Below, one piece after another: positions 29,513 to 55,976 of a stretch of DNA of 61,017 nucleotides. The stretch is from Actinomycetes bacterium (GTDB lineage: Bacteria > Actinomycetota > Thermoleophilia > BMS3ABIN01). Location: contig JAJRYJ010000030.1 in assembly GCA_024275795.1 (NCBI GenBank), positions 1-61,017 on the forward strand, written 5' to 3'. How positions within the stretch are numbered: the first letter of the stretch is position 1; the number at the start of each line of letters is the position of its first letter. The notes beneath the pieces are model-generated. The model ran no database searches and had not been told where the DNA came from. It saw only the letters and a list, made by a program, of their open reading frames with translations. The position numbers and the translations under genes were made by a program.

Positions 29513-30580
29513 ATGGACCTGGTTGATATCCTGGTCGAAGTCCTCGAAAGGGAAGCCTCGGACCTTCATCTGACTGTAGGCTCTCCTCCGATCATCAGAT
29601 TATCGGGCCGGTTGGTAGGCCTCGATTATCCGCGCCTCACCAGCAACGACACGCGCGATCTTATCTACAGTATCCTCTCCCAGGACCAGCGGCAGAGGAT
29701 CGAGAACGAGTGGGAGATCGATTTCTCCTATTCCGTACCGGGCAGGGCGCGTTTCCGTGTCAATGCCTACTTCCAGCGCAACAGCCTGGGGGCGGCCTTC
29801 AGGCTGATACCGGCGCAGATCAAATCGCTTGACGACCTGATGCTGCCGCTGTCACTGCACAAGATGGCGGCCAAGCCGCGAGGATTCGTGCTGGTCACCG
29901 GGCCCACCGGCTCCGGCAAGTCCACGACCCTGGCGGCGCTTATCCAGGAGATCAACGAGACACGCGAGGAACACATCATGACCATCGAGGACCCCATCGA
30001 GTTCCTCTATCGTCACAATAAATCCATCATCAACCAGCGGGAAGTGGGGACGGACACCAAGTCCTTCAACCGCGCCCTCAAGTCCGTGCTCAGGCAGGAC
30101 CCGGACGTGATTCTCGTGGGCGAGATGCGGGACAACGAGACCATGTAGACGGCCCTGACGGCGGCGGAGACCGGCCACCTGGTGTTCGCGACGCTGCATA
30201 CCCAGGACGCGCCGCAGACCATCGACAGGATCATCGACGTCTTCCCGCCACATGAACAGGGTCAGATCCGTGTACAGCTGGCGGCGACGCTGATGGGGAT
30301 CTGCACGCAGCAGCTGCTGCCACATATCGACGGCAACAAGCGCGTCCCCGCCTGCGAGGTGCTGATTCCCACGCCGGCGGTCAGGAACCTGATACGGGAA
30401 GCGAAGACGCACCAGATATATTCGGTTATCCAGACCGGCACCCAGTTCGGCATGCAGACGATGGACGCTTCACTCGCCGAACTCGTTAAACGCGGCATCG
30501 TCAAGAAAGACGTGGCGCTGCGCAAGTCAAGCAATCCCGAAGAGGTGGAACGCCTGATATTGGGCAGGCGTGTCGCCTGA
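29513..30580 (+). pseudogene. pilT: Twitching-motility ATPase PilT interrupted by one in-frame TAG at 30146-30148
   Basis: ORFs 29513-30148 and 30182-30580 are in the same frame. The read-through sequence ...[29 protein letters not shown]... restores the contiguous Walker B / His-box region of PilT. Confidence 0.8.
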
Positions 30581-32844: not shown

Positions 32845-32925
32845 GGTGAAAAAGGCAAACCACTCGCAAGGGTGGGGCGCAAAGCTACAGGACCAGCGGA
32901 GCTGGTTGGCTGAGCTGCCACCAGA
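32845..32925 (+). promoter_or_regulatory. Putative c-di-GMP-I (GEMM-I) riboswitch aptamer in the pilin leader
   Basis: GGCAAACC-ACUC-GCAA-GGGUGG-GGCGCAAAGCU-[CAGGACCAGC GGA GCUGGUUGGCUG]-AGC. This matches the GEMM-I core: GGCAAACC, a GNRA-capped P2, G(A/G)CGCAAAGC(C/U), P3, then AGC. Confidence 0.7.
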
Positions 32926-32970: not shown

Positions 32971-33015
32971 GTGGTTTTTCAGAAACTGAGTGATTGAGGA
33001 AGGGAGGTGACAGTT

Positions 33016-33411
33016 GTGAACACGAAGATCAGGAAAAGGATGCAGGCAGGCGGCGAGGGCGGCTTCACGCTCATCGAGCTGTTGGTGGTGATTATCATTA
33101 TCGCCATCCTGGCAGCGATCGCCATTCCGATGTACCTGAGTCAGCGTCAGAAGGGCTGGGAAGCCAACGCCAGGAGTGATCTGAGGAACGCTGCGGTGGC
33201 GCAGGAGAGTTATTTCACCGATAACGATACCTACACTACTACGGAAGCCAATCTCACGGCAGAGGGCTTTAACCCGTCCGCTAATGTGACGATGGACTAC
33301 ATCGTCGGCAGTGCCACTCGTTACTGCATGTCAGCTGTAAACGACAACGGTGGCGACAAGTTCTACATCGACAGCGATGACGGCGAGCCGACCACCACGG
33401 CTTGCTCGTAA
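33016..33411 (+). CDS. pilA: Type IV major pilin (prepilin with class III signal)
   Basis: GG|FTLIELLVVIIIIAILAAIAIP with Glu+5. GGGAGG SD lies 8 nt upstream of the GTG at 33016; the ORF track starts at 33007. Confidence 0.9.
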   Translation: MNTKIRKRMQAGGEGGFTLIELLVVIIIIAILAAIAIPMYLSQRQKGWEANARSDLRNAAVAQESYFTDNDTYTTTEANLTAEGFNPSANVTMDYIVGSATRYCMSAVNDNGGDKFYIDSDDGEPTTTACS

Positions 33412-33531: not shown

Positions 33532-33933
33532 ATGAGCTTATCTTTCCCCAGATATAAGCTTCATGCCGGTGGCGGTTTCACGATGATCGAACTGCTCCTT
33601 GTTATCATCATCATTGTCATTCTCTCATTGATAGCGATTCCGTTCTTCTTGTCCCAGCGTGAAAAAGGCTGGGACGCCAATGTAAAGAGTGATCTCCATA
33701 ACGCGGCTATCGCCCAGCAGACGTATTTTCACGATAACGACACCTTTGCCAGCCAGTTGAGCGATCTGCTGGACGCTGGTTACCGCAATTCATCGAAGAT
33801 AATGCTCTCGGTCGAGTCGGCGGACAGCAACGGCTTCTGCCTGGAGGCGTACCACGAAGCCGATCCAGGCAGCGTCTGGTACGTGGACAACGGCGCCGGC
33901 ACGCCCAACCCCCTGGAGGGCACCTGTCCCTGA
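33532..33933 (+). CDS. Type IV pilin paralog
   Basis: GG|FTMIELLLVIIIIVILSLIAIPFF. Clear paralog of the preceding pilin (shared SQR.KGW.AN.(K/R)SDL.NAA.AQ..YF.DND(T)(Y/F)). Confidence 0.9.
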   Translation: MSLSFPRYKLHAGGGFTMIELLLVIIIIVILSLIAIPFFLSQREKGWDANVKSDLHNAAIAQQTYFHDNDTFASQLSDLLDAGYRNSSKIMLSVESADSNGFCLEAYHEADPGSVWYVDNGAGTPNPLEGTCP

Positions 33934-42294: not shown

Positions 42295-44040
42295 ATGGGG
42301 CCGGGAGAATTACACAGCCAGAAGATGCGCTGGGGGCCGGAGGTCGACCCCCTGAGGATCGGCACGGGCTGGGAGCCGGATGAACTGGAAAGGCCGTGGC
42401 TGCTGGTGGAGAGCTCTGCCGGCGATTCCCATCCCGGCAGCGTGCATCTGCTGGAGGCGGCGAACGAGGTGCGGGCCGGTGCCCGCGAAGCGGGCCTCGC
42501 CGTCGCGCGCTATTTCTGCACCGACATGTGTGACGGCATCGCCCAGGGCACTCACGCCATGAGTTATTCGTTGGCCTCCAGGGAGCTGCTTGCCATGGCT
42601 GCGGAGCTTCATTTCCGCAGCGGTCACTTCGACGGCTGGGTGGCCGTATCCGGTTGCGACAAGGCCATACCGGCGCACCTGGTGGCGGCGGCCAGGCTCA
42701 ACCGGCCGGTGGTGTTCCTTCCTGGGGGAGTGATGCATACGGGGCCCGGCGATGTATCTGTGGACCGGATGGCGGAACTTTACGCAGACCTGCGGCGGGG
42801 CCAGATAAGCGAGGAAGACTACCGCTTCCATAGCAGGACGGCCGCTCCCTGTCCGGGCGCCTGTAATTTCCTGGGGACGGCCGTAACCATGCAGATAATG
42901 ACCGAGGCCCTGGGGCTGTCGCTGCCGGGCTCCGCCTGCTGTCCGACCACGGAACCGGAGCACGCCGGACTGGCAAGGGCCAGCGGTGCGGCGGCGGCGG
43001 ATATGATCCAACGGGAAATGACCGCAGGCTCAATCATCGACAGGCGCTCCCTTGAGAACGCGCTTGTTGTCCACTCGGCCATCGGCGGCTCGACTAACGC
43101 CATGCTGCACCTGCCGGCCCTGGCGGCGGAGCTTGGCCTTGATTTCTCCCTTGAGAGAGTGCGTGAGATCAACAAGAGCGTTCCCTGGATACTGAACCTG
43201 AGGCCGTCCGGCGAGCACACCGCGGACCTGATGTGGTACGCGGGAGGGGTGCCACGGATAATGGACCGGGTGAGGTCTTACCTGGACCTTGACGCCATGA
43301 CCGTCACCGGAGCCACCCTGGGGGAGAACCTGGAAGTATTTCTGCAGGCCGATGCCGTGGACAGGCACGCGAAGAAGCTGGAACAGACGGGGCTGAAGCC
43401 GGAGGACGTCATCGGCAGCGTCAATGACCCGCTGGCGGAGAGGGGGAGCCTGGCGGTGCTGAGCGGCAATCTGGCTCCGCGCGGAGCCGTGTGTAAACGC
43501 TCCGGCGTCGTCGAGGGCATGATGGTCTTTGAGGGCAGGGCCCGGGTGTTCAATGGCCAGGATGACGCCCTGGATGCGGTCTTCGCCGGAGAGATAGCGC
43601 CCGGTGACGTGGTGGTGGTGCGCTATGAAGGTCCGCGGGCCACGGGCATGCCCGAGATGTTCTACCTGACGGCAGCTATCGCCTCGGAACCCAGCCTCAA
43701 CGAGGGAATCGCCCTGGTGACGGACGGCCGTTTTTCCGGGGCGACGCGGGGGCCTTGCATCGGTCACGTCTCGCCGGAAGCCGCAGCTGGAGGGCCGCTT
43801 GCGGCGTTGGAGGACGGCGACCTCGTCAGGATAGACATGGATTCAGGAACCCTGGATCTGGCGGGAAATGATGGCAGGCATTACTCTCACACGGAGGCCG
43901 ATGCGGTCATAACTGAGCGCCTGGCAAGGATCGGCGAGTGGAAACCGCCGGCAAGAGTGGGCTTGATGGGCCTGTATACGGCTACCGCCGGTCCGGCGGA
44001 TGAGGGGGCGAGGATGGATCTGGGCACATTGGGCAGATGA
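42295..44040 (+). CDS. IlvD/Edd family dehydratase (sugar-acid or dihydroxy-acid dehydratase)
   Basis: CDGIAQGT.AM.YSLASREL, CDK..P, TDGRFSG motifs. 581 aa. Confidence 0.9.
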   Translation: MGPGELHSQKMRWGPEVDPLRIGTGWEPDELERPWLLVESSAGDSHPGSVHLLEAANEVRAGAREAGLAVARYFCTDMCDGIAQGTHAMSYSLASRELLAMAAELHFRSGHFDGWVAVSGCDKAIPAHLVAAARLNRPVVFLPGGVMHTGPGDVSVDRMAELYADLRRGQISEEDYRFHSRTAAPCPGACNFLGTAVTMQIMTEALGLSLPGSACCPTTEPEHAGLARASGAAAADMIQREMTAGSIIDRRSLENALVVHSAIGGSTNAMLHLPALAAELGLDFSLERVREINKSVPWILNLRPSGEHTADLMWYAGGVPRIMDRVRSYLDLDAMTVTGATLGENLEVFLQADAVDRHAKKLEQTGLKPEDVIGSVNDPLAERGSLAVLSGNLAPRGAVCKRSGVVEGMMVFEGRARVFNGQDDALDAVFAGEIAPGDVVVVRYEGPRATGMPEMFYLTAAIASEPSLNEGIALVTDGRFSGATRGPCIGHVSPEAAAGGPLAALEDGDLVRIDMDSGTLDLAGNDGRHYSHTEADAVITERLARIGEWKPPARVGLMGLYTATAGPADEGARMDLGTLGR

Positions 44041-44192
44041 GCGTGCCGCAATCCGCCTGATATTCGGGCGGGAATAAAAAAGGAGAATCGGGGCATAAGT
44101 AGAATGCAAACCTGCACTATTCATAACTCACGCCGCGGCACGCGGGCGGTTTTATCGCCTGGCAGGGCGGAGCCGCGGTAGTGGGGAGGCAG

Positions 44193-44226
44193 GGCGGGGA
44201 CTTAATGTAGGGCTTAAGTCCCCGCC
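44193..44226. terminator. 13-bp-stem hairpin between convergent genes
   Basis: ggcggggacttaa-tgtagggc-ttaagtccccgcc. Confidence 0.6.
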
Positions 44227-44268
44227 GCTATTTATTCAGAGCCCGCTTCTGATTACGAAACTCCTGAA

Positions 44269-45450
44269 TTATTTCGTGAACTGTTCCATCAGCCGCCAGC
44301 CCTCGTCAACGACGCAGCCGCTCTCGGCCGCGTTCTTCTCATCGAAAGCCGAAGCCGGGCTCCCCGGCACCCCGGGGCCGTAAATCACGAAGGGGACCGG
44401 CTCGTCCGTATGGGTCTTGATCTCCACCGGTGTGGCGTGGTCCGGCAGCACCAGCAGCCGGTAGTCGCCGATATCCTCCAGGCCCTTGAGCAGCGGTCCC
44501 AGCAGCCTGGCGTCGATGTTCTCTATGGCAGTCACCTTGGCATCCGTGTCTCCCATGTGTGATGCCTCGTCGGGCGCCTCCACGTGGACATAGACGAAAT
44601 CCTTTGCCTTCAGTTCGTTGATGGCGTAGGTCGCCTTGGCGCCATAGTCCGTGTCAAGGAAGCCGGTGGCGCCGGGAACCTCCACCACGTTCAGACCCGC
44701 ATAGCGTCCCAGGCCCTTGACCAGGTCCACGGCGGAGATGACCGAGCCGTCAAGGCCGAATCTCTCCTTGAGAGTGGGCATGCGCGGGGCGGTCCCCTGT
44801 CCCCAGAGCCAGATCATGTTGGCGGGGGCTTTGCCGTTACCGGCCCTTTCCAGGTTGAGCGGGTGTTCCTCAAGCAGCCTGCCCGCCACGTCCATCAGGC
44901 CGCGCAACCACCCGGACCCTTCCCCCTGGGGCAGGTGATCCTCCACCGGCTGGCCGCTGATGTCGTGGGGCGGCGTGCATCTGGCCGCACCGCCCTTCCC
45001 CTTTGAGAGCATGATGTGCCGGTAGCTCAGTCCCTTGTGGAAGGAGATCTCGTCGTTGCCCATGTTCTGGTCCAGGAACCTGATCAACACCTCAGCCTGC
45101 TCCGTGGCGATATGGCCCGCGGAGAAGTCGCGCATCAGTCCTTCCTCTATCCAGACCAGGTTGCAGCGGAAGGCCACGTCCTTTTCATCCATGGCGATTA
45201 CCAGGTTGGCCGCCTCCAGCGGGGCGCGGCCGGTGTAATAGAGATGGGGGTCGTAACCCATGACGCAGAGATTTGCCACGTCGCTGCCGGCAGGGAAGTT
45301 CTCGGGGATGTTCTTGACCAGGCCCAGGGTCCCCTCGGCGGCGATGCGGTCGAGGTTAGGCGTGGCGGCAGCCTCGAGCGGGGTCTTGCCGTCGAGTTCC
45401 GGGCGGGGCCAGTCGGCCGAGCCATCCGGTATCAGGACTACGTATTTCAT
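44269..45450 (-). CDS. ApgM-type cofactor-independent phosphoglycerate mutase homolog; likely the alternative homoserine kinase of the thr operon
   Basis: Alkaline-phosphatase-superfamily motifs (ILIPDG.AD, HVEAPDEA.H, PDH.TP). Last gene of a hom-thrC-X operon. Confidence 0.8.
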   Translation of the reverse strand: MKYVVLIPDGSADWPRPELDGKTPLEAAATPNLDRIAAEGTLGLVKNIPENFPAGSDVANLCVMGYDPHLYYTGRAPLEAANLVIAMDEKDVAFRCNLVWIEEGLMRDFSAGHIATEQAEVLIRFLDQNMGNDEISFHKGLSYRHIMLSKGKGGAARCTPPHDISGQPVEDHLPQGEGSGWLRGLMDVAGRLLEEHPLNLERAGNGKAPANMIWLWGQGTAPRMPTLKERFGLDGSVISAVDLVKGLGRYAGLNVVEVPGATGFLDTDYGAKATYAINELKAKDFVYVHVEAPDEASHMGDTDAKVTAIENIDARLLGPLLKGLEDIGDYRLLVLPDHATPVEIKTHTDEPVPFVIYGPGVPGSPASAFDEKNAAESGCVVDEGWRLMEQFTK

Positions 45451-45457
45451 CCGGTCC

Positions 45458-46522
45458 CTAGAGTTTGAGTAACTTTATGACCTGGTCGAAATCCGGTGGG
45501 GCGCTGGTTACCTCGGGGCCGGTGCTGATGGCCGTGTCCGGATCCTTGAGGCCATGGCCCGTGAGCACACAGACCACGGTCGAATCCTGCTTGAAGTGAC
45601 CCTCTCCGGCTTTCTTGACAAGACCGGCGATGCTGGCGGCGGAGGCCGGCTCGCAGAATGTCCCCTCCACGGACGCCACCAGGCGGTAGGCGCCGATGAT
45701 CTCCTCGTCGGTAACCGCCTCGATCAGGCCTCCCGAATCTGACGCCGCCGCCAGCGCTTCGTCTCCACGCGCCGGGTTGCCGATACGGATGGCCGTGGCG
45801 ATGGTCTCGGGCTCCTCAACGGGATGGCCCTCGACCAGGGGGGCCGCTCCGGCGGCCTGGAAGCCAGTCATCCTCGGCAGGCTGGAGCATTTGCCCGCGT
45901 CATGATATTCCCTGAAGCCTTTCCAGTAGGCGGTGATGTTCCCGGCGTTGCCCACGGGGATGCAGAGGTAGTCAGGGGCCTCGCCGAGAGCGTCCACTAT
46001 CTCGAAAGCGCCGGTCTTCTGGCCCTCGATACGGTATGGATTGATCGAATTGACCAGTTGCACCGGGTAGTTTTCGACGATGCGCCGTACCAGGTCCAGC
46101 GCCTGGTCGAAATTGCCGTCCACAGCCAGTACGCGGGCTCCATGGGTGAGGGCCTGGGCCAGTTTGCCCGCAGCGATCTTCCCCTTGGGGATGATGACGA
46201 TGCAGCGCATGCCGGCGCGGCTCGCGTAGGCGGCAGCCGCCGCCGAGGTGTTGCCGGTGGAGGCGCAGATCACCGCTGTGGCGCCCTCCTCGGCGCCCTT
46301 GGAGACGGCGATGGTCATGCCCCTGTCCTTGAAGCTGCCCGTGGGGTTGAGGCCCTCCAGCTTGAGGAAGACGTTCAGTCCCAGGCGCTCGCTCAGCCGG
46401 TTGGCCTTGAGCAGCGGCGTGCTTCCCTCGGCAAGCGAGATCACCGGCGTCTTCTCAGAGACCGGCAGGAAAGGCCGGTAGCGCTCGATAAGGGGGACCC
46501 TTCGCAGCGGATTACTGCTCAT
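45458..46522 (-). CDS. thrC: Threonine synthase
   Basis: PLP Lys context ([10 protein letters not shown]), 354 aa. Overlaps the hom stop. Confidence 0.93.
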
Positions 46523-49311: not shown

Positions 49312-49911
49312 ATGTCTAAACGGTCCAAGCCATTCAGGCTTCCCAGAGCCTATTATTATGGAATCATCGGCGCCCTCGGTGGCCTCTGCTATGCGCTTTT
49401 CGCCTATGTCGCCGACCGGTACACTTCTTATGACCTGGCGGTCCTCCATATCTTTGTCGCTCCCGTGGTCGCGGGCATAGTTGCGCTTGTGCTGGGGCGT
49501 GAAGAGGACCATATCCGCAACCAGACTGAACTGCTGGAACGTTCACGCAAGCGCTTCACGTCCATGACCACCTCGGTGATAACCGAGGACGACTGGAGCG
49601 TCAGTTTTCACGATCCCCACATACCCACCTGCTGGGAGGTCAAGGACTGCGACAGGCATGAATGTCCCGCCCACGGGAAACGGCACGTCCGCTGCTGGAT
49701 GGTCGCCGGCACTTTCTGCAGGGGCGAGGTGCAGGGGCAATATGCACAGAAGATCAAGGATTGCTCCAGATGTGAGGTCTACATCGAGGCTCTGGGGGGT
49801 GACCCGCTCAACGAGATCAGCGAGAACTTCAACAGCCTGATATGGGTGCTGGACGAGAAAGGCAAGATGCTCGCGCGGGCCAACGAAGAGCTGCAAGCGA
49901 AATATGACTAG
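49312..49911 (+). CDS. Membrane-anchored Cys-rich (two CW motifs) sensor module; N-terminal part of a split GGDEF/HD-GYP protein
   Basis: Two TM helices, then CWEVKDC-x4-CP...RCWMVAGTFC...DCSRCEVY. Collinear with aa 1-210 of the intact paralog at 51142-52941. Ends in TAG at 49909-49911. Confidence 0.8.
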   Translation: MSKRSKPFRLPRAYYYGIIGALGGLCYALFAYVADRYTSYDLAVLHIFVAPVVAGIVALVLGREEDHIRNQTELLERSRKRFTSMTTSVITEDDWSVSFHDPHIPTCWEVKDCDRHECPAHGKRHVRCWMVAGTFCRGEVQGQYAQKIKDCSRCEVYIEALGGDPLNEISENFNSLIWVLDEKGKMLARANEELQAKYD

Positions 49912-51078
49912 ATGGAGGCGCTGCAGCGGAAGACCCAGGAAGCAGCCGAGACGGATGAGTTGACAGGCCTTAAGAACCGCGGTCATTTTCTGCATCACCT
50001 CAAGCAGGAGTTCAGCAAGGCAAAACGCTTCGGAAAACCGCTCTCGCTGGTCATCGTAGACCTGGAGGGATTCAAGGATATCAACGACGACTTCGGCTAT
50101 CACAAGGGCGACGAAGTGCTCAGAAAACTGGGGATGATGCTCAGGAATGAAGTTGGCCCTCATGATTACGTTGCACGCTACGGCAAAGAGGAGTTCGCCA
50201 TGGTGCTTCCGGAGATGGACGGCATCAAGGCCACCATCCTGGCCCGCAAGCTGCACGGCAAACTCGGCCGGGTAGCCGAGGATACGGAGATCGATGATTC
50301 GTACGTGGCTGCGGTATTCGGCGTAGCGGATTTTCCCGACTGCGCGTCCGACAGCGACAGCCTGCTGTCGGCGGCGGATTCGGCGCTGCTGTTCGCGAGA
50401 CGCAACCCGCAGTCGCGCGTCGCCTATTTCTGCGACCTCAGCGAGACCGAACTGAGCCAGACAGACCTTGATCGTCTCAACAGCCGGCTGGAGGGCGCCA
50501 GCCTCAAAACACTGAATGCCCTCGCCGAGGCCGTCAACGTCAACGATAATTATTCGGGAGAGAATATCGACGATATGGCGCTGATGGCCGTCTCCCTGGC
50601 CCGGGATCTGGGTTTGAACGACGAGCAGGCGGGGGCCCTGGCGCTGGCTACGAGGCTGCATGACATCGGCAAGATAGGCGTTCCCAGCTCTATCCTGGGC
50701 AAGACCGGCAAACTCTCGCCGGACGAGCTTGCGCTGGTGAAACAGCATCCCGAGATCGGCCAGAAGCTGCTCCAGGAGGCCGAACAGATAAAGGACCTGA
50801 TATCGGCCATCCTTTACCACCACGAGCGCTGGGACGGCAAAGGCTACCCGGAACGGCTCAAGGGCGAGCAGATTCCGCTGATGGCCCGCATCGTCGGCAT
50901 TTTCGATGCCTACAGGGCCATGCGCTGCGACCGGCCCTACCGCAAGGCACTCTCCAAGCAGCAGGCGCTGGCGGAACTTAAGAAGGGGGCCGGCAGCCAG
51001 TTCGATCCCAACATCGTCCAGCAGTTCCTTGAACTGCTGGAGAGGGACAGTTGCGATATCGGGGAAAAGGCCAGCTGA
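49912..51078 (+). CDS. GGDEF (degenerate GKEEF) plus HD-GYP protein; C-terminal part of the split paralog
   Basis: The ATG immediately follows the in-frame TAG. GGDEF-domain fold with GKEEF, then HDIGKIGVP...HHERWDGKGYP. Confidence 0.85.
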   Translation: MEALQRKTQEAAETDELTGLKNRGHFLHHLKQEFSKAKRFGKPLSLVIVDLEGFKDINDDFGYHKGDEVLRKLGMMLRNEVGPHDYVARYGKEEFAMVLPEMDGIKATILARKLHGKLGRVAEDTEIDDSYVAAVFGVADFPDCASDSDSLLSAADSALLFARRNPQSRVAYFCDLSETELSQTDLDRLNSRLEGASLKTLNALAEAVNVNDNYSGENIDDMALMAVSLARDLGLNDEQAGALALATRLHDIGKIGVPSSILGKTGKLSPDELALVKQHPEIGQKLLQEAEQIKDLISAILYHHERWDGKGYPERLKGEQIPLMARIVGIFDAYRAMRCDRPYRKALSKQQALAELKKGAGSQFDPNIVQQFLELLERDSCDIGEKAS

Positions 51079-51141
51079 GCCGGGAATGTCCGTAATCGGG
51101 GTTGAGGAAAAGATGGATAAAAACAAAGAGGGGCGAGGCAA

Positions 51142-52941
51142 ATGATCACAAGATACATATCAGGGCATCTGAGCTCGATGCGCCGCATCTTCATCGTGAT
51201 GATCTCCTTCGGCCTGGCCATGGGCCTGGTGTTCCCGCTGGTGGCGGAGCCCTTTGTCGAATGGGTGCCGGGCCGCAAGGGCTATTTCCAGCTCGCCTGC
51301 CTGGCCGCCGGCTTCGCCGTGGGAACCTTCTGCTATTACCTGGTGAAACTGACCCTTTTCGAGAAGAACATGATACTGGCTGAGCGCAAGCGGACTCTGG
51401 AAGCCGCGAAGGATCGTTTCAGCACGCTTACAAGCACGGCTATCACCAGCCGCGACTGGGACGTGAGTTTTCATGACGGGCATGTGCCTACCTGCTGGAA
51501 GGTCAAGGGCTGCGACAATCGTGACTGTCCCTGTTACGGCAGGGAGAACATACGCTGCTGGCTCGTGACCGGCACTTACTGCGGTGGCGTGGTCCAGGGG
51601 CGTTTCGCCCAGAAGCTCGAAAGTTGCACCCAGTGTTCGGTTTACCAGGAGGCGGTGGAGAGGGATCCGATAAACGAGATCGGCGAGAACTTCAACAGCC
51701 TGATGTGGGTCGTCAAGGAGCGGGAGGACGAGCTGTCCGAAGCCCGCAACAAGCTGCAGGCCAACTACTCGGAGCTGGAGCGGCTGCACGAGAAGGTCAA
51801 GGAGGCGTCCATAACTGATTCATTGACGGGTCTGAGGAACCACGGCCATTTCCAGCAGCACCTGGAACAGGAGGCGGAACGCGCCAACCGTTACCGGCGC
51901 CCCCTTTCCCTGGTGATGCTCGATCTCGACTTTTTCAAATCCGTGAATGATAAATACGGCCACCAGAAGGGCGACCAGGTGCTGAGCGGCATCGGACGCC
52001 TTCTCAAGGGTGAGCTCAGGCGCATGGACTACGCGGCGCGCTACGGCGGCGAGGAGTTCGTCATCGTCATGCCCGAGACGACCGGGAAAGAGGCCTGCGA
52101 GGTGGCCGAGAGGCTGCGGAAGAAGGTGGGCGCCGTCGCTGAAGATGTCGGTCTGCCACAGGTGCCGCTGGCCGCCAGCTTCGGCGTGGCCGACATGCCG
52201 TCGTGCGCCAACGACAACGAGAGCCTCGTGGCCGCCGCCGACTCGGCGCTGCTGTTCGCCAAGAGCAAGGGCAGGGACCAGGTGGCCTATTTCCGCGACC
52301 TGTCGGAGACCGAGCTCGGCGAGCGGGACATCGACGGCCTCAACATGCGGCTGGAGGGCGCCAGCCTCAAGACCATCTGTTCGCTGGCTGAGGCGGTGGA
52401 CGCCAGGGACAGCTACACGGGCCAGGAGTCGCGCAACATGTCGGCCATAGCCGAGATGATGGCGGAAAAGCTGAACCTGAGCCGCGAGCAGGTGGAATCG
52501 CTGTCGCTGGCCACAGTGCTGCATGATATCGGCAAGATCGGCATACCGGACTCGGTGTTGAGCAAGAAGGACAAGCTGTCGGAGGAAGAGGTCGAGGTGA
52601 TTCAGCAGCATCCGCAAATCGGCAAACGCATCATGCGCGAGGCGGAGCAGATACAGGACCTGGTCTCGGCTATCCTCTATCATCATGAGCGCTGGGACGG
52701 CACCGGCTATCCGGAACAGCTCAAGGGCGAGGAGATACCGCTGATGGCCAGGGTGGTGGGAATCTTCGACGCCTACCGGGCGATGACGACGGACCGGCCC
52801 TACCGCAAGGCTCTGAACGAGAAATCGGTCATGGAAGAGCTGCGCAAGGGCGCCGGCAGCCAGTTCGACCCGCAACTGGTGGATCTGTTCATCGAGACCA
52901 TTGAATCACAGCGCGGCCAGGATATAGCCCAGGCGGGTTGA
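51142..52941 (+). CDS. Intact membrane Cys-rich sensor / GGDEF (GGEEF, RxxD I-site) / HD-GYP protein
   Basis: TM helices, CWKVKGC...CPC...RCWLVTGTYC...CTQCSVY, RRMD-x5-GGEEF, HDIGKIGIP...HHERWDGTGYP. Confidence 0.9.
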   Translation: MITRYISGHLSSMRRIFIVMISFGLAMGLVFPLVAEPFVEWVPGRKGYFQLACLAAGFAVGTFCYYLVKLTLFEKNMILAERKRTLEAAKDRFSTLTSTAITSRDWDVSFHDGHVPTCWKVKGCDNRDCPCYGRENIRCWLVTGTYCGGVVQGRFAQKLESCTQCSVYQEAVERDPINEIGENFNSLMWVVKEREDELSEARNKLQANYSELERLHEKVKEASITDSLTGLRNHGHFQQHLEQEAERANRYRRPLSLVMLDLDFFKSVNDKYGHQKGDQVLSGIGRLLKGELRRMDYAARYGGEEFVIVMPETTGKEACEVAERLRKKVGAVAEDVGLPQVPLAASFGVADMPSCANDNESLVAAADSALLFAKSKGRDQVAYFRDLSETELGERDIDGLNMRLEGASLKTICSLAEAVDARDSYTGQESRNMSAIAEMMAEKLNLSREQVESLSLATVLHDIGKIGIPDSVLSKKDKLSEEEVEVIQQHPQIGKRIMREAEQIQDLVSAILYHHERWDGTGYPEQLKGEEIPLMARVVGIFDAYRAMTTDRPYRKALNEKSVMEELRKGAGSQFDPQLVDLFIETIESQRGQDIAQAG

Positions 52942-53183: not shown

Positions 53184-54704
53184 ATGAATTCCCAACGTAT
53201 AACCATATTCGATACCACCCTGCGTGACGGCGAACAGTCCCCGGGAATCAGCCTCAACGCCTTCGAGAAGGTGGAGATAGCCGAGCAGCTGGCGCGCCTG
53301 GGCGTGGACGTGATAGAAGCTGGTTTCCCTATCTCGTCACCCGGCGATTTCGAGGGCGTGCAGAAGATCGCCCGCGAGGTGTCAGGGGTTTCCGTCTGCG
53401 GCCTGGCGCGGGCAATCGATAAGGATATCCGCACCGCCTGGGACGCCGTCAGGGAGGCGGAGCGGCCGCGCATCCATACCTTCATCTCCACCAGCGACGT
53501 GCATCTGGAGCATCAGCTGCGCAAGACGCGCGACGAGGTGCTGGCGGCGGCGCGCGAGATGGTGGCGCTGGCGGTGAGCCTCTGCGACGACGTGGAGTTC
53601 TCGGCCATGGACGCCACCCGCAGCGACCCCGACTTCCTGGCGGCGGTGCTGGCTGCGGCCATCGAGGAGGGGGCGACGACGATAAACATCCCGGACACGG
53701 TGGGCTACGCCATGCCGGCGGAGTTCGGCGCCTTCATCCGCGACCAGTTCGAGCGGGTCCCGGGCCTGGCGGAAGTGGCGGTGAGCGTCCATTGCCATAA
53801 CGACCTGGGCCTGGCGGTGGCCAACTCGCTGGCGGCCGTGGAGGCCGGGGCTACCCAGGTGGAATGCGCCGTGAACGGCCTGGGGGAGCGCGCCGGCAAC
53901 GCCTCCCTGGAGGAGATAGTGATGATCATGGAGACGCGCCGCGACGAGCTGGGCAGGGAGACGGGTATCGTCACCACCGAGATAGACCGCACCAGCCGCC
54001 TGGTGAGCCAGCTCACCGGCTACGAGGTGCAGCCCAACAAGGCGGTGGTGGGCAAGAACGCCTTCGCCCATGAGTCGGGCATCCACCAGGACGGCGTGCT
54101 CAAGGAGCGCACCACTTATGAGATAATGAACGCCCGCAGCATCGGCCGCAGTCAGAGCGACATCGTGCTGGGCAAGCACTCGGGCCGTCACGCGCTCAAG
54201 TCCGCCATGGAGGAACTGGGTTTCTCCCTCAGCGACGATGAGCTCAACCAGGCCTTTGAGAATTTCAAGAAGATCGCGGACAAGAAGAAGCAGATAACGG
54301 CGGTGGACCTGGAGCACCTGGTGAGCGAGGAGCTCAGGGAGCTGACGGACATCTACGAGCTGAAGTCCTACGAGGTGGTCTCCAGCTCCGAGTTCACGCC
54401 CACCTGCCAGGTGATCATCGAGAAGGAGGGCGAGGAGCTGCCGGGCAGGAGCTTCTCCGGCGGCTCCATGGAGTCCATGTTCATGGCCATCGACAAGGCC
54501 GTGGGTACCACGGGCCTGCTGAAGGACTACCAGGTGCGGGCGGTAACCTCCGGCAAGGATTCGCTGGGCGAGGTCAAGGTGGTAGTGGAAGTGAACGGCG
54601 AGGACTACGCCGGCACGGCGCTCTCCATCGACGTGGTGGAGGCCAGCGCCAAGGCTTATATCAGGGCAATCAACAACGCGTATCGCGCAGGGGCGGTGAA
54701 GTAG
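53184..54704 (+). CDS. leuA: 2-isopropylmalate synthase
   Basis: IFDTTLRDGEQSPG, HCHNDLGLAVAN, and a C-terminal LeuA_dimer region. Confidence 0.95.
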   Translation: MNSQRITIFDTTLRDGEQSPGISLNAFEKVEIAEQLARLGVDVIEAGFPISSPGDFEGVQKIAREVSGVSVCGLARAIDKDIRTAWDAVREAERPRIHTFISTSDVHLEHQLRKTRDEVLAAAREMVALAVSLCDDVEFSAMDATRSDPDFLAAVLAAAIEEGATTINIPDTVGYAMPAEFGAFIRDQFERVPGLAEVAVSVHCHNDLGLAVANSLAAVEAGATQVECAVNGLGERAGNASLEEIVMIMETRRDELGRETGIVTTEIDRTSRLVSQLTGYEVQPNKAVVGKNAFAHESGIHQDGVLKERTTYEIMNARSIGRSQSDIVLGKHSGRHALKSAMEELGFSLSDDELNQAFENFKKIADKKKQITAVDLEHLVSEELRELTDIYELKSYEVVSSSEFTPTCQVIIEKEGEELPGRSFSGGSMESMFMAIDKAVGTTGLLKDYQVRAVTSGKDSLGEVKVVVEVNGEDYAGTALSIDVVEASAKAYIRAINNAYRAGAVK

Positions 54705-55976
54705 ATGGCGGAACCGATGACCATAACCGAGAAGATACTGGCGCGGGCCTGCGGCCTGGAGGAGGTCCACGCCGGCGAGTTCGTAAACGCGAAGCTGGAC
54801 CTGGCGCTGGCCAACGATATCACGGCGCCGCTGGCCATCAACGAGTTCAGGGGCGCCGGGCTGGAGAAGGTCTGGGACCCGGAGCGCGTGGCGCTGGTGT
54901 GCGATCATTTCGTCCCCAACAAGGACATCAAGTCGGCGGAGCAGGCAAAGCAGGTGCGCGACTTCGCGGCCGAGCAGGGCATCGAGGGTTTCTTCGACGT
55001 GGGCCGCATGGGCATCGAGCACGTGATACTGCCGGAGCTGGGCATAGTGGTCCCCGGCGACGTGGTCATCGGCGCTGATTCTCATACCTGCACCTACGGA
55101 GCCCTGGGCGCCTTCGCCACCGGCGTCGGCAGCACCGACCTGGCGGCGGGCATGGCCACGGGCGAGGTCTGGCTCAGGGTGCCCGAGACCGTAAGATTCG
55201 TGTACAGCGGCACGTTGGGACGTTACGTCACCGGCAAGGACCTGGTGCTGGACACCATCGGGCGCATCGGCGTGGACGGGGCGCTCTACCAGGCCATGGA
55301 GTTCGCCGGCGAGGCGGTGGCGGCCATGCCCATGTCCGGCCGCTTCACCATGTGCAACATGGCCATCGAGGCCGGCGGCAAGAGCGGCATCATCGAGCCG
55401 GACGAGGTCACCATGGAATACGTGAGCGGCCGCGCCCGGCGCGAGCCGGTGCTGTTCTCTAGCGACAACAACGCGGTCTATGCGGATGTGATGGAGATCG
55501 ACGCCGGGGCCGTCAGACCCCAGGTGGCCAAGCCGCATCTGCCGTCGAACGCCGTGGACGCTGAGGAACTGAGCGGGATGGACATCGACCAGGTGGTCAT
55601 CGGCTCCTGCACCAACGGCCGCATGGACGACCTGCGCATGGCGGCGGAGGTGCTGAAGGGGCGCAAGGTCGCCCCCGGGGTGCGGACCATCATCATCCCC
55701 GGCAGCCAGCATATCTACCAGCAGGCCATCAAGGAGGGCCTGGTGGACATCTTTATCGACGCCGAGGCGGCGGTGAGCACGCCCACCTGCGGGCCCTGCC
55801 TGGGGGGCCACATGGGCATCCTGGCGGCCGGAGAGCGCTGCGTGGCCACCACCAACCGCAATTTCGTCGGCCGCATGGGCCATCCCGAGAGCGAGGTCTA
55901 TCTGGCGGGGCCTTATGTGGCAGCGGCCACGGCAGTGACCGGGTATGTATCCGTGCCCGAGGAGGTACTGGCATGA
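54705..55976 (+). CDS. leuC: 3-isopropylmalate dehydratase large subunit
   Basis: Aconitase-family motifs (DSHT, GSCTNGR, TCGPC). TAG-ATG junction with leuA. Confidence 0.95.

Follow-up and report, generated by a model that had tools for sequence, protein, structure and literature searches.

A predicted HAMP-nested two-CW module in the input position of tandem GGDEF/HD-GYP paralogs from an Actinomycetota genome

The tandem two-CW genes

The window analysed here is a whole stretch of 61,017 nucleotides from an Actinomycetes bacterium (Thermoleophilia, BMS3ABIN01; assembly GCA_024275795.1, contig JAJRYJ010000030.1, forward strand), and coordinates are numbered along this stretch unless another contig is named. 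Two tandem paralogous genes on its plus strand encode, in order, two transmembrane (TM) segments, a Cys-rich core, and the GGDEF and HD-GYP output domains of enzymes that make or break cyclic di-GMP (c-di-GMP). The core belongs to a catalogued sequence family, the two-CW domain, and profile comparisons suggest that it is nested in an element resembling the HAMP domain. Paralog 2 is intact, while paralog 1 is interrupted by an in-frame TAG and has a degenerate GGDEF domain. With this TAG read through, the paralogs are 52% identical over 566 residues. A strong Shine-Dalgarno (SD) sequence (GGAGGAGG) precedes the ATG of the upstream open reading frame (ORF) of paralog 1. The features are collected in Table 1.

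Table 1. Features of the two paralogs, followed by other features of the window and of the same genome (aa, amino acids; AF2, AlphaFold2; AS2, second amphipathic helix of HAMP).
Feature	Position	Strand	Basis
Paralog 1, whole span	49312-51078	+	read as two same-frame ORFs split by a single TAG
Paralog 1 upstream ORF, 199 aa + TAG: two TM helices, two-CW module, AS2-like helix	49312-49911	+	ORF list, NF045718 match
Paralog 1 TM helices, outer loop of 7 residues	49351-49497 (TM1 49351-49413, TM2 49435-49497)	+	hydropathy peaks, motif coordinates
Paralog 1 N-flank: predicted helix, then HAMP-connector-like 'DDWSVSFHD'	49525-49629	+	AF2 helix in the paralog 2 equivalent; family-level hhalign to HAMP connector
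Paralog 1 two-CW Cys7 core, residues 107-154	49630-49773	+	translation, NF045718, Cys alignment
Paralog 1 AS2-like helix 'DPLNEISENFNSLIW' and start of signalling helix (predicted)	49801-49908	+	gap-free alignment to family AS2-like helix; family-level hhalign to HAMP AS2
In-frame amber stop TAG in linker, ATG directly after	49909-49911	+	Glu in all aligned homologs
Paralog 1 downstream ORF, 388 aa: degenerate GGDEF and intact HD-GYP	49912-51078	+	Pfam GGDEF 6.5e-34, HD_5 1.3e-40
Paralog 2, intact 599-aa 2TM - two-CW - GGDEF - HD-GYP protein	51142-52941	+	ORF list, NF045718, Pfam
Paralog 2 TM helices, outer loop of 12 residues	51187-51345 (TM1 51187-51246, TM2 51283-51345)	+	hydropathy, motif coordinates
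Paralog 2 N-flank: predicted helix and connector-like 'RDWDVSFHD'	51391-51492	+	AF2 helix, residues 2-19 of 116-aa construct; hhalign
Paralog 2 two-CW Cys7 core, residues 118-165	51493-51636	+	translation, NF045718
Paralog 2 AS2-like helix 'DPINEIGENFNSLMW', predicted as one long helix on to GGDEF	51664-51810	+	AF2 helix, residues 92-115; family-level hhalign to HAMP AS2
Paralog 2 GGDEF domain (GGEEF 52045-52059, I-site RRMD 52018-52029, DLD 51919-51939)	51811-52281	+	Pfam GGDEF 7.6e-43
Paralog 2 HD-GYP domain (HDIGK 52522-52536, GTGYP 52699-52713)	52387-52878	+	Pfam HD_5 1.1e-40
pilT-like retraction ATPase with in-frame TAG	29513-30560 (TAG 30146-30148)	+	TAG at codon 212
c-di-GMP-I-GGC riboswitch aptamer	32845-32923	+	Rfam, 62.1 bits (gathering score 59)
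Two type IV pilin-like genes	33007-33411, 33532-33933		prepilin motif 'GFTLIELLVV'
2TM-twoCW-GAF-GAF-GGDEF protein	contig C66 (L002 1-2034)	-	NF045718 genome search, Pfam
767-aa TM-PAS-GAF-twoCW-HisKA-HATPase kinase	contig C88 ~43236-45539 (L003 178-2481)		
475-aa heme-copper oxidase-family ORF	contig C35 12608-13840	+	COX1, 214.5 bits

The two-CW core

The core of paralog 1 (49630-49773) translates to CWEVKDCDRHECPAHGKRHVRCWMVAGTFCRGEVQGQYAQKIKDCSRC, and that of paralog 2 (51493-51636) translates to CWKVKGCDNRDCPCYGRENIRCWLVTGTYCGGVVQGRFAQKLESCTQC; these are exactly the Cys-rich stretches that the preliminary description of this locus had placed here. Both cores have the spacing C-x5-C-x4-CP-x8-C-x7-C-x14-C-x2-C, with a Trp after the first and the fourth Cys. 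The observation in that description that seven Cys and two Cys-Trp pairs are invariant between the copies is borne out by both translations, and paralog 2 has one additional, non-conserved Cys (CPC). The gap between the Cys-Pro and the Arg-Cys, written earlier as seven or eight residues, is seven in both.

The name "two-CW domain", suggested in the same description, was correct. Searches with hidden Markov models (HMMs) lead to the NCBIfam model NF045718, "two-CW domain-containing protein", which has 80 positions and a curated cut-off of 35 bits. Paralog 1 scores above this cut-off (44.5 bits by hmmscan and 45.6 bits in a six-frame search of the genome), and paralog 2 is borderline, at 34.0 bits when its protein is scanned with hmmscan and 36.2 bits when the genome is searched in six frames. 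By these scores and the shared Cys pattern, both genes encode members of this uncharacterised family.

A homolog search with residues 70-200 of paralog 2 returned 65 sequences, nearly all of which have the order 2TM-twoCW-GGDEF(-HD-GYP) and come from metagenome bins labelled Thermoleophilia, Actinobacteria or Gaiellales. The earlier proposal of a metal or iron-sulfur (Fe-S) centre was tied to conservation of the Cys residues in orthologs, and all seven are invariant in each of three alignments, which contain 64 family members, 79 diverse representatives and 58 module segments. Further invariants of the family are both Trp, the Pro after the third Cys, the Arg before the fourth Cys, and the pattern "GT-x-C-x-G..Q". 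Moreover, the stretch that follows the core, "DPINEIGENFNSLMW" in paralog 2, is conserved to the same degree as the core itself, and the Glu of its "IGE" is invariant. The motif as first proposed also contained "SFHD-x-H"; its seven-Cys and Cys-Trp part is real, but the His residues are common to the two paralogs only, and their positions vary in the family (H/E/Q/Y/K and others). These His are therefore unlikely ligands and were rejected as such.

Pfam contains no family that matches the N-terminal 200 residues of either paralog, or the excised modules at E<=10. A phmmer search of PDB sequences found no relative (one meaningless match at E=1.8), and literature searches found no publication on the two-CW domain, its cofactor or its nesting in HAMP. 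These results agree with the earlier statement that its cofactor and signal are uncharacterised. The two-CW domain is already catalogued as a sequence family, so it is not new as a family; what could not be found is a published account of the domain or of its nesting.

Structure prediction with AlphaFold2 (AF2) gave a mean predicted local distance difference test (pLDDT) of 76.8 from a family-only alignment, and 84.3 with a predicted template modelling score (pTM) of 0.74 from a broader one. In the model of a 116-aa construct, a helix (residues 2-19) leads into a core that has no more than short helices and a small bridge, and a long helix (residues 92-115) comes after it. Foldseek found no match in the PDB at E<=10 for either model.

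Relation to the HAMP domain

The helix that follows the core has the family consensus "D-p-i-x-x-I-G-E-x-F-N-n-M-M", which resembles the motif of the second amphipathic helix (AS2) of HAMP domains, DEIGxLxxxFNxM. In a chemoreceptor among the cluster representatives (P0208), Pfam HAMP aligns only through its AS2 part (model positions 34-53), and this part falls on the module C-helix. The order after its second TM helix is a stretch resembling the first amphipathic helix (AS1), a "GDL" connector, the Cys core, and AS2. A custom HAMP HMM was built from 20 canonical HAMP domains found in these two-CW proteins, and in 187 of its 215 matches it aligns with the module C-helix from HMM position 30 onwards, in the AS2 part. 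In profile-profile comparison by hhalign, the module aligns with HAMP over 22 AS2 columns (83.5% probability, P=8e-6). When the Cys core is deleted in silico, the alignment improves to 93% (P=3e-7) and extends over HAMP positions 21-54, which comprise the connector and AS2. In addition, the two-CW kinase on contig C88 of the same genome has a C-helix, "LTELGEAFNNMMAMLEQ", that matches HAMP AS2 significantly by itself (11.4 bits). The paralogs align without gaps to the wider family over the AS2-like helix, and the weak single-sequence HAMP match of paralog 2 falls in the same register.

Taken at the profile level, these comparisons suggest that the Cys core is nested in a HAMP-like element, of which the C-helix would be AS2 and the stretch before the core the connector. 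Paralogs 1 and 2 would then be divergent, shortened and HAMP-nested two-CW members fused to GGDEF-HD-GYP.

Topology and placement of the module

Each paralog starts with two hydrophobic segments separated by 7-12 residues, with basic residues before TM1 and after TM2, and neither has an extracytoplasmic domain. The placement of the module after two TM helices, on the cytoplasmic side and directly upstream of the helix that leads into GGDEF, is thus as it was first described. Because the outer loop is only 7-12 residues long, the input has to be cytoplasmic or come from within the membrane, and because there is no extracytoplasmic domain, the membrane helices and the two-CW module are the only candidates left for it. 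To this extent the earlier term "input domain" is sound. The conserved unit extends beyond the Cys core, though, to include the AS2-like helix, and a module embedded in a HAMP-like transmitter is therefore a more fitting description than a separate N-terminal input domain.

Distribution and reuse of the module

When 1.84 billion cluster representatives were searched with a 98-residue profile that spans the N-flank, the core and the C-helix, 1,794 clusters matched at E<=1e-3 and 733 at E<=1e-10. Pfam architectures were scanned in 79 representatives of these clusters. Among them are 51 histidine kinases, 16 proteins with receiver domains and 10 GGDEF proteins, many with PAS or GAF domains; one other representative is the chemoreceptor described above. 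A canonical Pfam HAMP domain is present in 14 of the 79, and it lies upstream of the module in the three for which positions were checked. The HAMP-like unit is thus shared with histidine kinases, chemoreceptors and other cyclases.

The 1.9-Mb genome that contains the window has four two-CW copies: paralogs 1 and 2, a GAF-GGDEF protein on contig C66 and the histidine kinase on contig C88. Two-CW domains were found in 22 of 301 sampled genomes of the phylum, clustered in few families, with up to eight matches per genome in relatives, and in none of 14 model genomes. Among named genomes, the closest relatives come from subsurface Actinomycetota, Nitrospirota/Thermodesulfovibrionia, Desulfobacterota and a Coriobacteriia bin.

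Free-standing proteins of 70-106 aa, made up of nothing but the Cys core, reach the highest NF045718 scores (60-110 bits). These stand-alone members have the same two Cys-Trp dipeptides and the same order of seven Cys, and a 70-aa member in L097 aligns nearly residue for residue with the core of the window. They lack the flanking helices, whereas the window copies are fused, membrane-anchored and bounded by HAMP-like flanks. The window copies also score lower (34-46 bits) and cover the model with about 55 residues rather than 76, because the loops between the second and third and between the third and fourth Cys are shorter.

Both two-CW copies adjoin each other in about 10 genomes of the same family. 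In GCA_016235065.1, the gene order is as in the window: homoserine dehydrogenase, NlpC/P60, the tandem pair, and leuA-leuCD-leuB. These neighbours are biosynthetic genes and give no functional hint.

Output domains and decay of paralog 1

Pfam identifies GGDEF and HD_5 (HD-GYP) in both paralogs. The HD-GYP domains have HD_5 matches of about 1e-40 with HDIGK and G(T/K)GYP motifs, and those of paralog 1 are intact (HD at 50659, GYP at 50836-50850). The GGDEF domains differ. Paralog 2 carries the full diguanylate cyclase motif set of GGEEF, LDLD and the inhibitory site (I-site) RxxD, here RRMD, while paralog 1 has GKEEF (50182-50196), DLE in place of DxD, and GPHD in place of the I-site RxxD. The GGDEF domain of paralog 1 is therefore predicted to be catalytically dead, and only paralog 2, with GGEEF and HD-GYP both intact, is taken as the functional bifunctional copy. 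Of the two GGDEF/HD-GYP proteins first described, paralog 2 fits that description, but paralog 1 is both degenerate in GGDEF and split.

The TAG that splits paralog 1 has the codon context "tat gac TAG atg gag" and lies in the coiled-coil linker, 36 codons past the end of the module region and about 10 codons before the start of the GGDEF domain. Every aligned homolog has Glu at this position, and a single G-to-T change from the ortholog Glu codon produces the stop. Among the full-length or near-full-length matches listed from 30 relatives, a stop occurs only in the window copy. Suppression of the TAG, by pyrrolysine or otherwise, was considered and rejected: the genome has no PylS (the best hit is a 22.6-bit cross-match to an aminoacyl-tRNA synthetase, against a cut-off of 178), and none of its 49 tRNAs has a CUA anticodon. 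The TAG is therefore a stop.

The decay of paralog 1 extends beyond this codon. Over 197 columns that are at least 92% conserved in the family, paralog 1 departs from the consensus at 24, paralog 2 at 1, and the median family member at 1.5; a separate comparison of paralog 2 gives 1 of 193 conserved columns. By region, paralog 1 departs at 8 of 52 columns of the N-terminal part, at 14 of 63 of GGDEF and at 2 of 82 of HD-GYP. Because the departures are concentrated in GGDEF, the cyclase half has been under relaxed constraint, while the Cys core and HD-GYP have been kept.

For paralog 1, the TAG might instead be an assembly or sequencing error, or a minor allele of the metagenome bin, with the full-length protein made in reality. 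The single-nucleotide distance from the ortholog codon and the draft state of the genome (123 contigs) are compatible with such an error, but the 24 departures at conserved columns, which include the catalytic GGEEF, indicate relaxed constraint independently of the stop. In addition, a pilT-like gene of the same circuit also has an in-frame TAG, within the conserved "GEMRD..T-x-ALTAAETGH" and with no start codon after it; amber codons thus interrupt the c-di-GMP and type IV pilus circuit of the window twice. An artefactual TAG is accordingly considered distinctly unlikely.

Adaptive fission of the gene with translational coupling is conceivable, as the TAG directly precedes an ATG and such stop-ATG junctions exist at real operon junctions here, for example between leuA and leuC (TAG-ATG, 54702-54707). 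Fission has been demoted because the ATG at 49912 has no SD sequence or purine run before it, unlike most other stop-ATG junctions of the genome, and because changes from Leu to Met are seen elsewhere in paralog 1. A nonsense allele in a gene already losing its cyclase function is rated above functional fission. At best, paralog 1 would give rise to two products, a free membrane-anchored two-CW protein and a soluble HD-GYP phosphodiesterase whose translation reinitiates at the adjacent ATG; failing that, the gene would be in decay.

Two genome-wide observations on stop codons may be recorded here. In a crude composition-based screen of the whole genome, TAG accounts for 74 of 150 same-frame junctions of the type coding-stop-coding, compared to 32% of ordinary stops; most of these junctions are abutting operon genes, which dominate the result, and the screen is not informative as evidence of recoding. 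ARAGORN identifies a selenocysteine tRNA (anticodon TCA), and selenocysteine is probably used at some TGA codons, which is unrelated to the TAG interruptions.

Proposed cofactor and mechanism

In the best reading of the module, the seven Cys hold a metal centre that is probably Fe-S, and the AS2-like helix passes on the state of this centre to set the balance of cyclase and phosphodiesterase activity. Taken as a whole, this reading may equally well prove right or wrong. Its first part, a Cys-ligated metal centre of some kind, is likely. Fe-S is the single likeliest cofactor, although its chance is somewhat below even; it is favoured by the all-Cys ligand set, by the Cys-Pro motif and the aromatic residues beside ligand Cys, two arguments that draw on ferredoxins and high-potential iron-sulfur proteins (HiPIPs), and by a distribution that leans towards anaerobes. 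We infer metal binding, the identity of the cofactor, the signal, the direction of regulation and the sensing of redox state, O2 or nitric oxide (NO) from the features described above.

In the proposed mechanism, the 48-residue Cys7 core would form a compact, mostly non-regular knot, probably held by the metal centre, which might be an Fe-S cluster with, for example, a 4-Cys site and a 3-Cys site. This knot would be spliced into the relay that follows TM2, in the order N-helix, connector-like strand "RDWxVSF", core, and AS2-like helix "P-x-x-E-I-G-E-N-F-N-S-L-M", which would run as one signalling helix into GGDEF. The state of the centre (assembled or lost, oxidised or reduced, or modified by O2 or NO) would alter how the knot packs on the AS2-like helix in the dimer. 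With this change in packing, the signalling helix would move to another register or rotational state and thereby reposition the two GGDEF domains of the dimer, and perhaps HD-GYP. The outcome would be a set balance between diguanylate cyclase (GGEEF) and HD-GYP phosphodiesterase activity.

Several points weigh against this reading. We know of no canonical Fe-S or zinc motif that the Cys spacing fits, and seven is an odd number of ligands. On the HAMP side, the N-flank alone gives no hhalign signal against HAMP and no AS1 similarity, the AS2-like helices of the window score only -1.6 and -2.6 bits against HAMP as single sequences, and Pfam HAMP matches neither paralog, even with the module excised and at E<=10. 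The HAMP link of these two proteins therefore rests on transitivity at the family level. The stand-alone two-CW proteins have no flanking helices, so the core can function outside HAMP. Finally, the host is not demonstrably a strict anaerobe, because its genome, although it lacks cytochrome bd, carries a heme-copper oxidase-family (COX1) gene comparable in size to a cbb3 oxidase or NO reductase. The organism may meet O2 or NO, the candidate signals.

Of the other explanations, structural zinc survives best. Zinc bound as Zn(Cys)4 plus Zn(Cys)3, or as a bridged Zn2Cys7 cluster, would rigidify or dimerise the linker without carrying a signal, leaving the membrane helices or a partner protein to act as the true input. 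Zinc is the typical stabiliser of Cys-rich mini-domains that have little regular secondary structure, and the AF2 core has few regular elements. The lack of a canonical Fe-S spacing also suits zinc, as does the oxidase-family protein of the host, since O2 may be met. Yet a purely structural spacer would be a surprising find at the joint where about 1,800 clusters of kinases, chemoreceptors and cyclases convert their signals, sometimes in tandem copies, or as a free protein of 70-106 aa. Moreover, no conserved His or Asp is available to complete two tetrahedral sites, and the domain is absent from the 14 model genomes and occurs mainly in anaerobe-labelled lineages. Structural zinc is thus unlikely, and an all-thiolate, conserved cytoplasmic knot at the relay joint that also exists as a free small protein fits a cofactor-bearing input better than a spacer.

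In a related explanation, a thiophilic metal ion (Cu(I), Zn, Cd or Ni) is itself the ligand, and its binding is the signal. An all-thiolate cytoplasmic site at the relay joint would suit this role, for which the zinc-regulated cyclases with a CZB domain provide a precedent. The genes nearby are for amino-acid biosynthesis, however, with no metal-homeostasis genes among them, and four copies in this genome and up to eight matches in relatives suit a general cue better than one metal, which makes metal-ligand sensing improbable. A metal-free thiol/disulfide switch that reports cytoplasmic oxidative stress would account for many Cys close together in a cytoplasmic protein, but it is the least probable explanation, as invariance of all seven Cys, the adjacent Trp and the Cys-Pro across a diverse family is more typical of a fixed coordination sphere than of a switch of two or three thiols, which would not require it, and an AF2 core this poor in regular structure would not be stable unless a cofactor held it.

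The metal-centre reading can be extended further. Two-CW may be a new fold with an Fe-S centre, for example 4-Cys plus 3-Cys as in 7Fe ferredoxins, built into the HAMP connector. Through such a "cofactor-gated HAMP", the redox, O2 or NO status of the cytoplasm would act directly on kinases, chemoreceptors and c-di-GMP enzymes in many lineages that are uncultured and mostly anaerobic, and in this organism such a HAMP would control the c-di-GMP pool read by the pilin riboswitch 17 kb upstream. This extended version is doubtful.

Comparison with known systems

HAMP domains (PF00672) have been studied in Af1503, Tsr and NarQ. Like HAMP, the two-CW unit directly follows TM2, has the order helix, connector, helix, shows profile similarity in the connector and AS2, and runs into an output helix. 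Tandem two-CW arrays also exist, as in poly-HAMP proteins: five representatives (P0069-P0073) have two two-CW/HAMP-like units 30-40 residues apart. The two-CW unit differs from HAMP in that about 48-60 residues of Cys core separate the connector from AS2, and in that AS1 is unrecognisable by sequence.

Known Fe-S cluster sensors include NreB, FNR, WhiB-like proteins and AirS. The likeness to two-CW lies in the proposed logic only, in which the integrity or redox state of a Cys-ligated cluster reports O2, NO or redox to a signalling output. There is no similarity in sequence or fold, the number and spacing of Cys differ, and the two-CW cofactor is a putative one. DgcZ is a zinc-regulated diguanylate cyclase whose CZB domain is a four-helix bundle with a His3Cys site. 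It resembles the two-CW enzymes in that a small metal-binding input domain (putatively so in two-CW) governs GGDEF, while two-CW would be an all-Cys knot that matches no solved fold. The tandem GGDEF and HD-GYP architecture is known from genome surveys, with few members studied. Paralog 2 conforms to it, with GGEEF and the RxxD I-site followed by HD...GYP, but its input is the two-CW/HAMP-like unit rather than REC, PAS or GAF.

The c-di-GMP circuit and significance of the two-CW domain

The c-di-GMP that the two-CW enzymes make or break has a likely reader within the window, a c-di-GMP-I-GGC riboswitch aptamer that lies directly upstream of the two type IV pilin-like genes. For annotation of this locus, the analysis corrects one of the two "enzymes": its reading frame is broken by a stop codon, and its cyclase motif is gone.

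Input domains limit the understanding of c-di-GMP enzymes, histidine kinases and chemoreceptors, and the two-CW domain sits where transmembrane receptors convert their signals. Paralog 2, the C88 kinase and the 70-aa stand-alone relatives provide compact constructs for its study. There is a fair chance that both the fold and the cofactor chemistry are new. If the domain does bind Fe-S or another metal, it would represent a new and widespread wiring of cytoplasmic redox or metal status into bacterial signalling.

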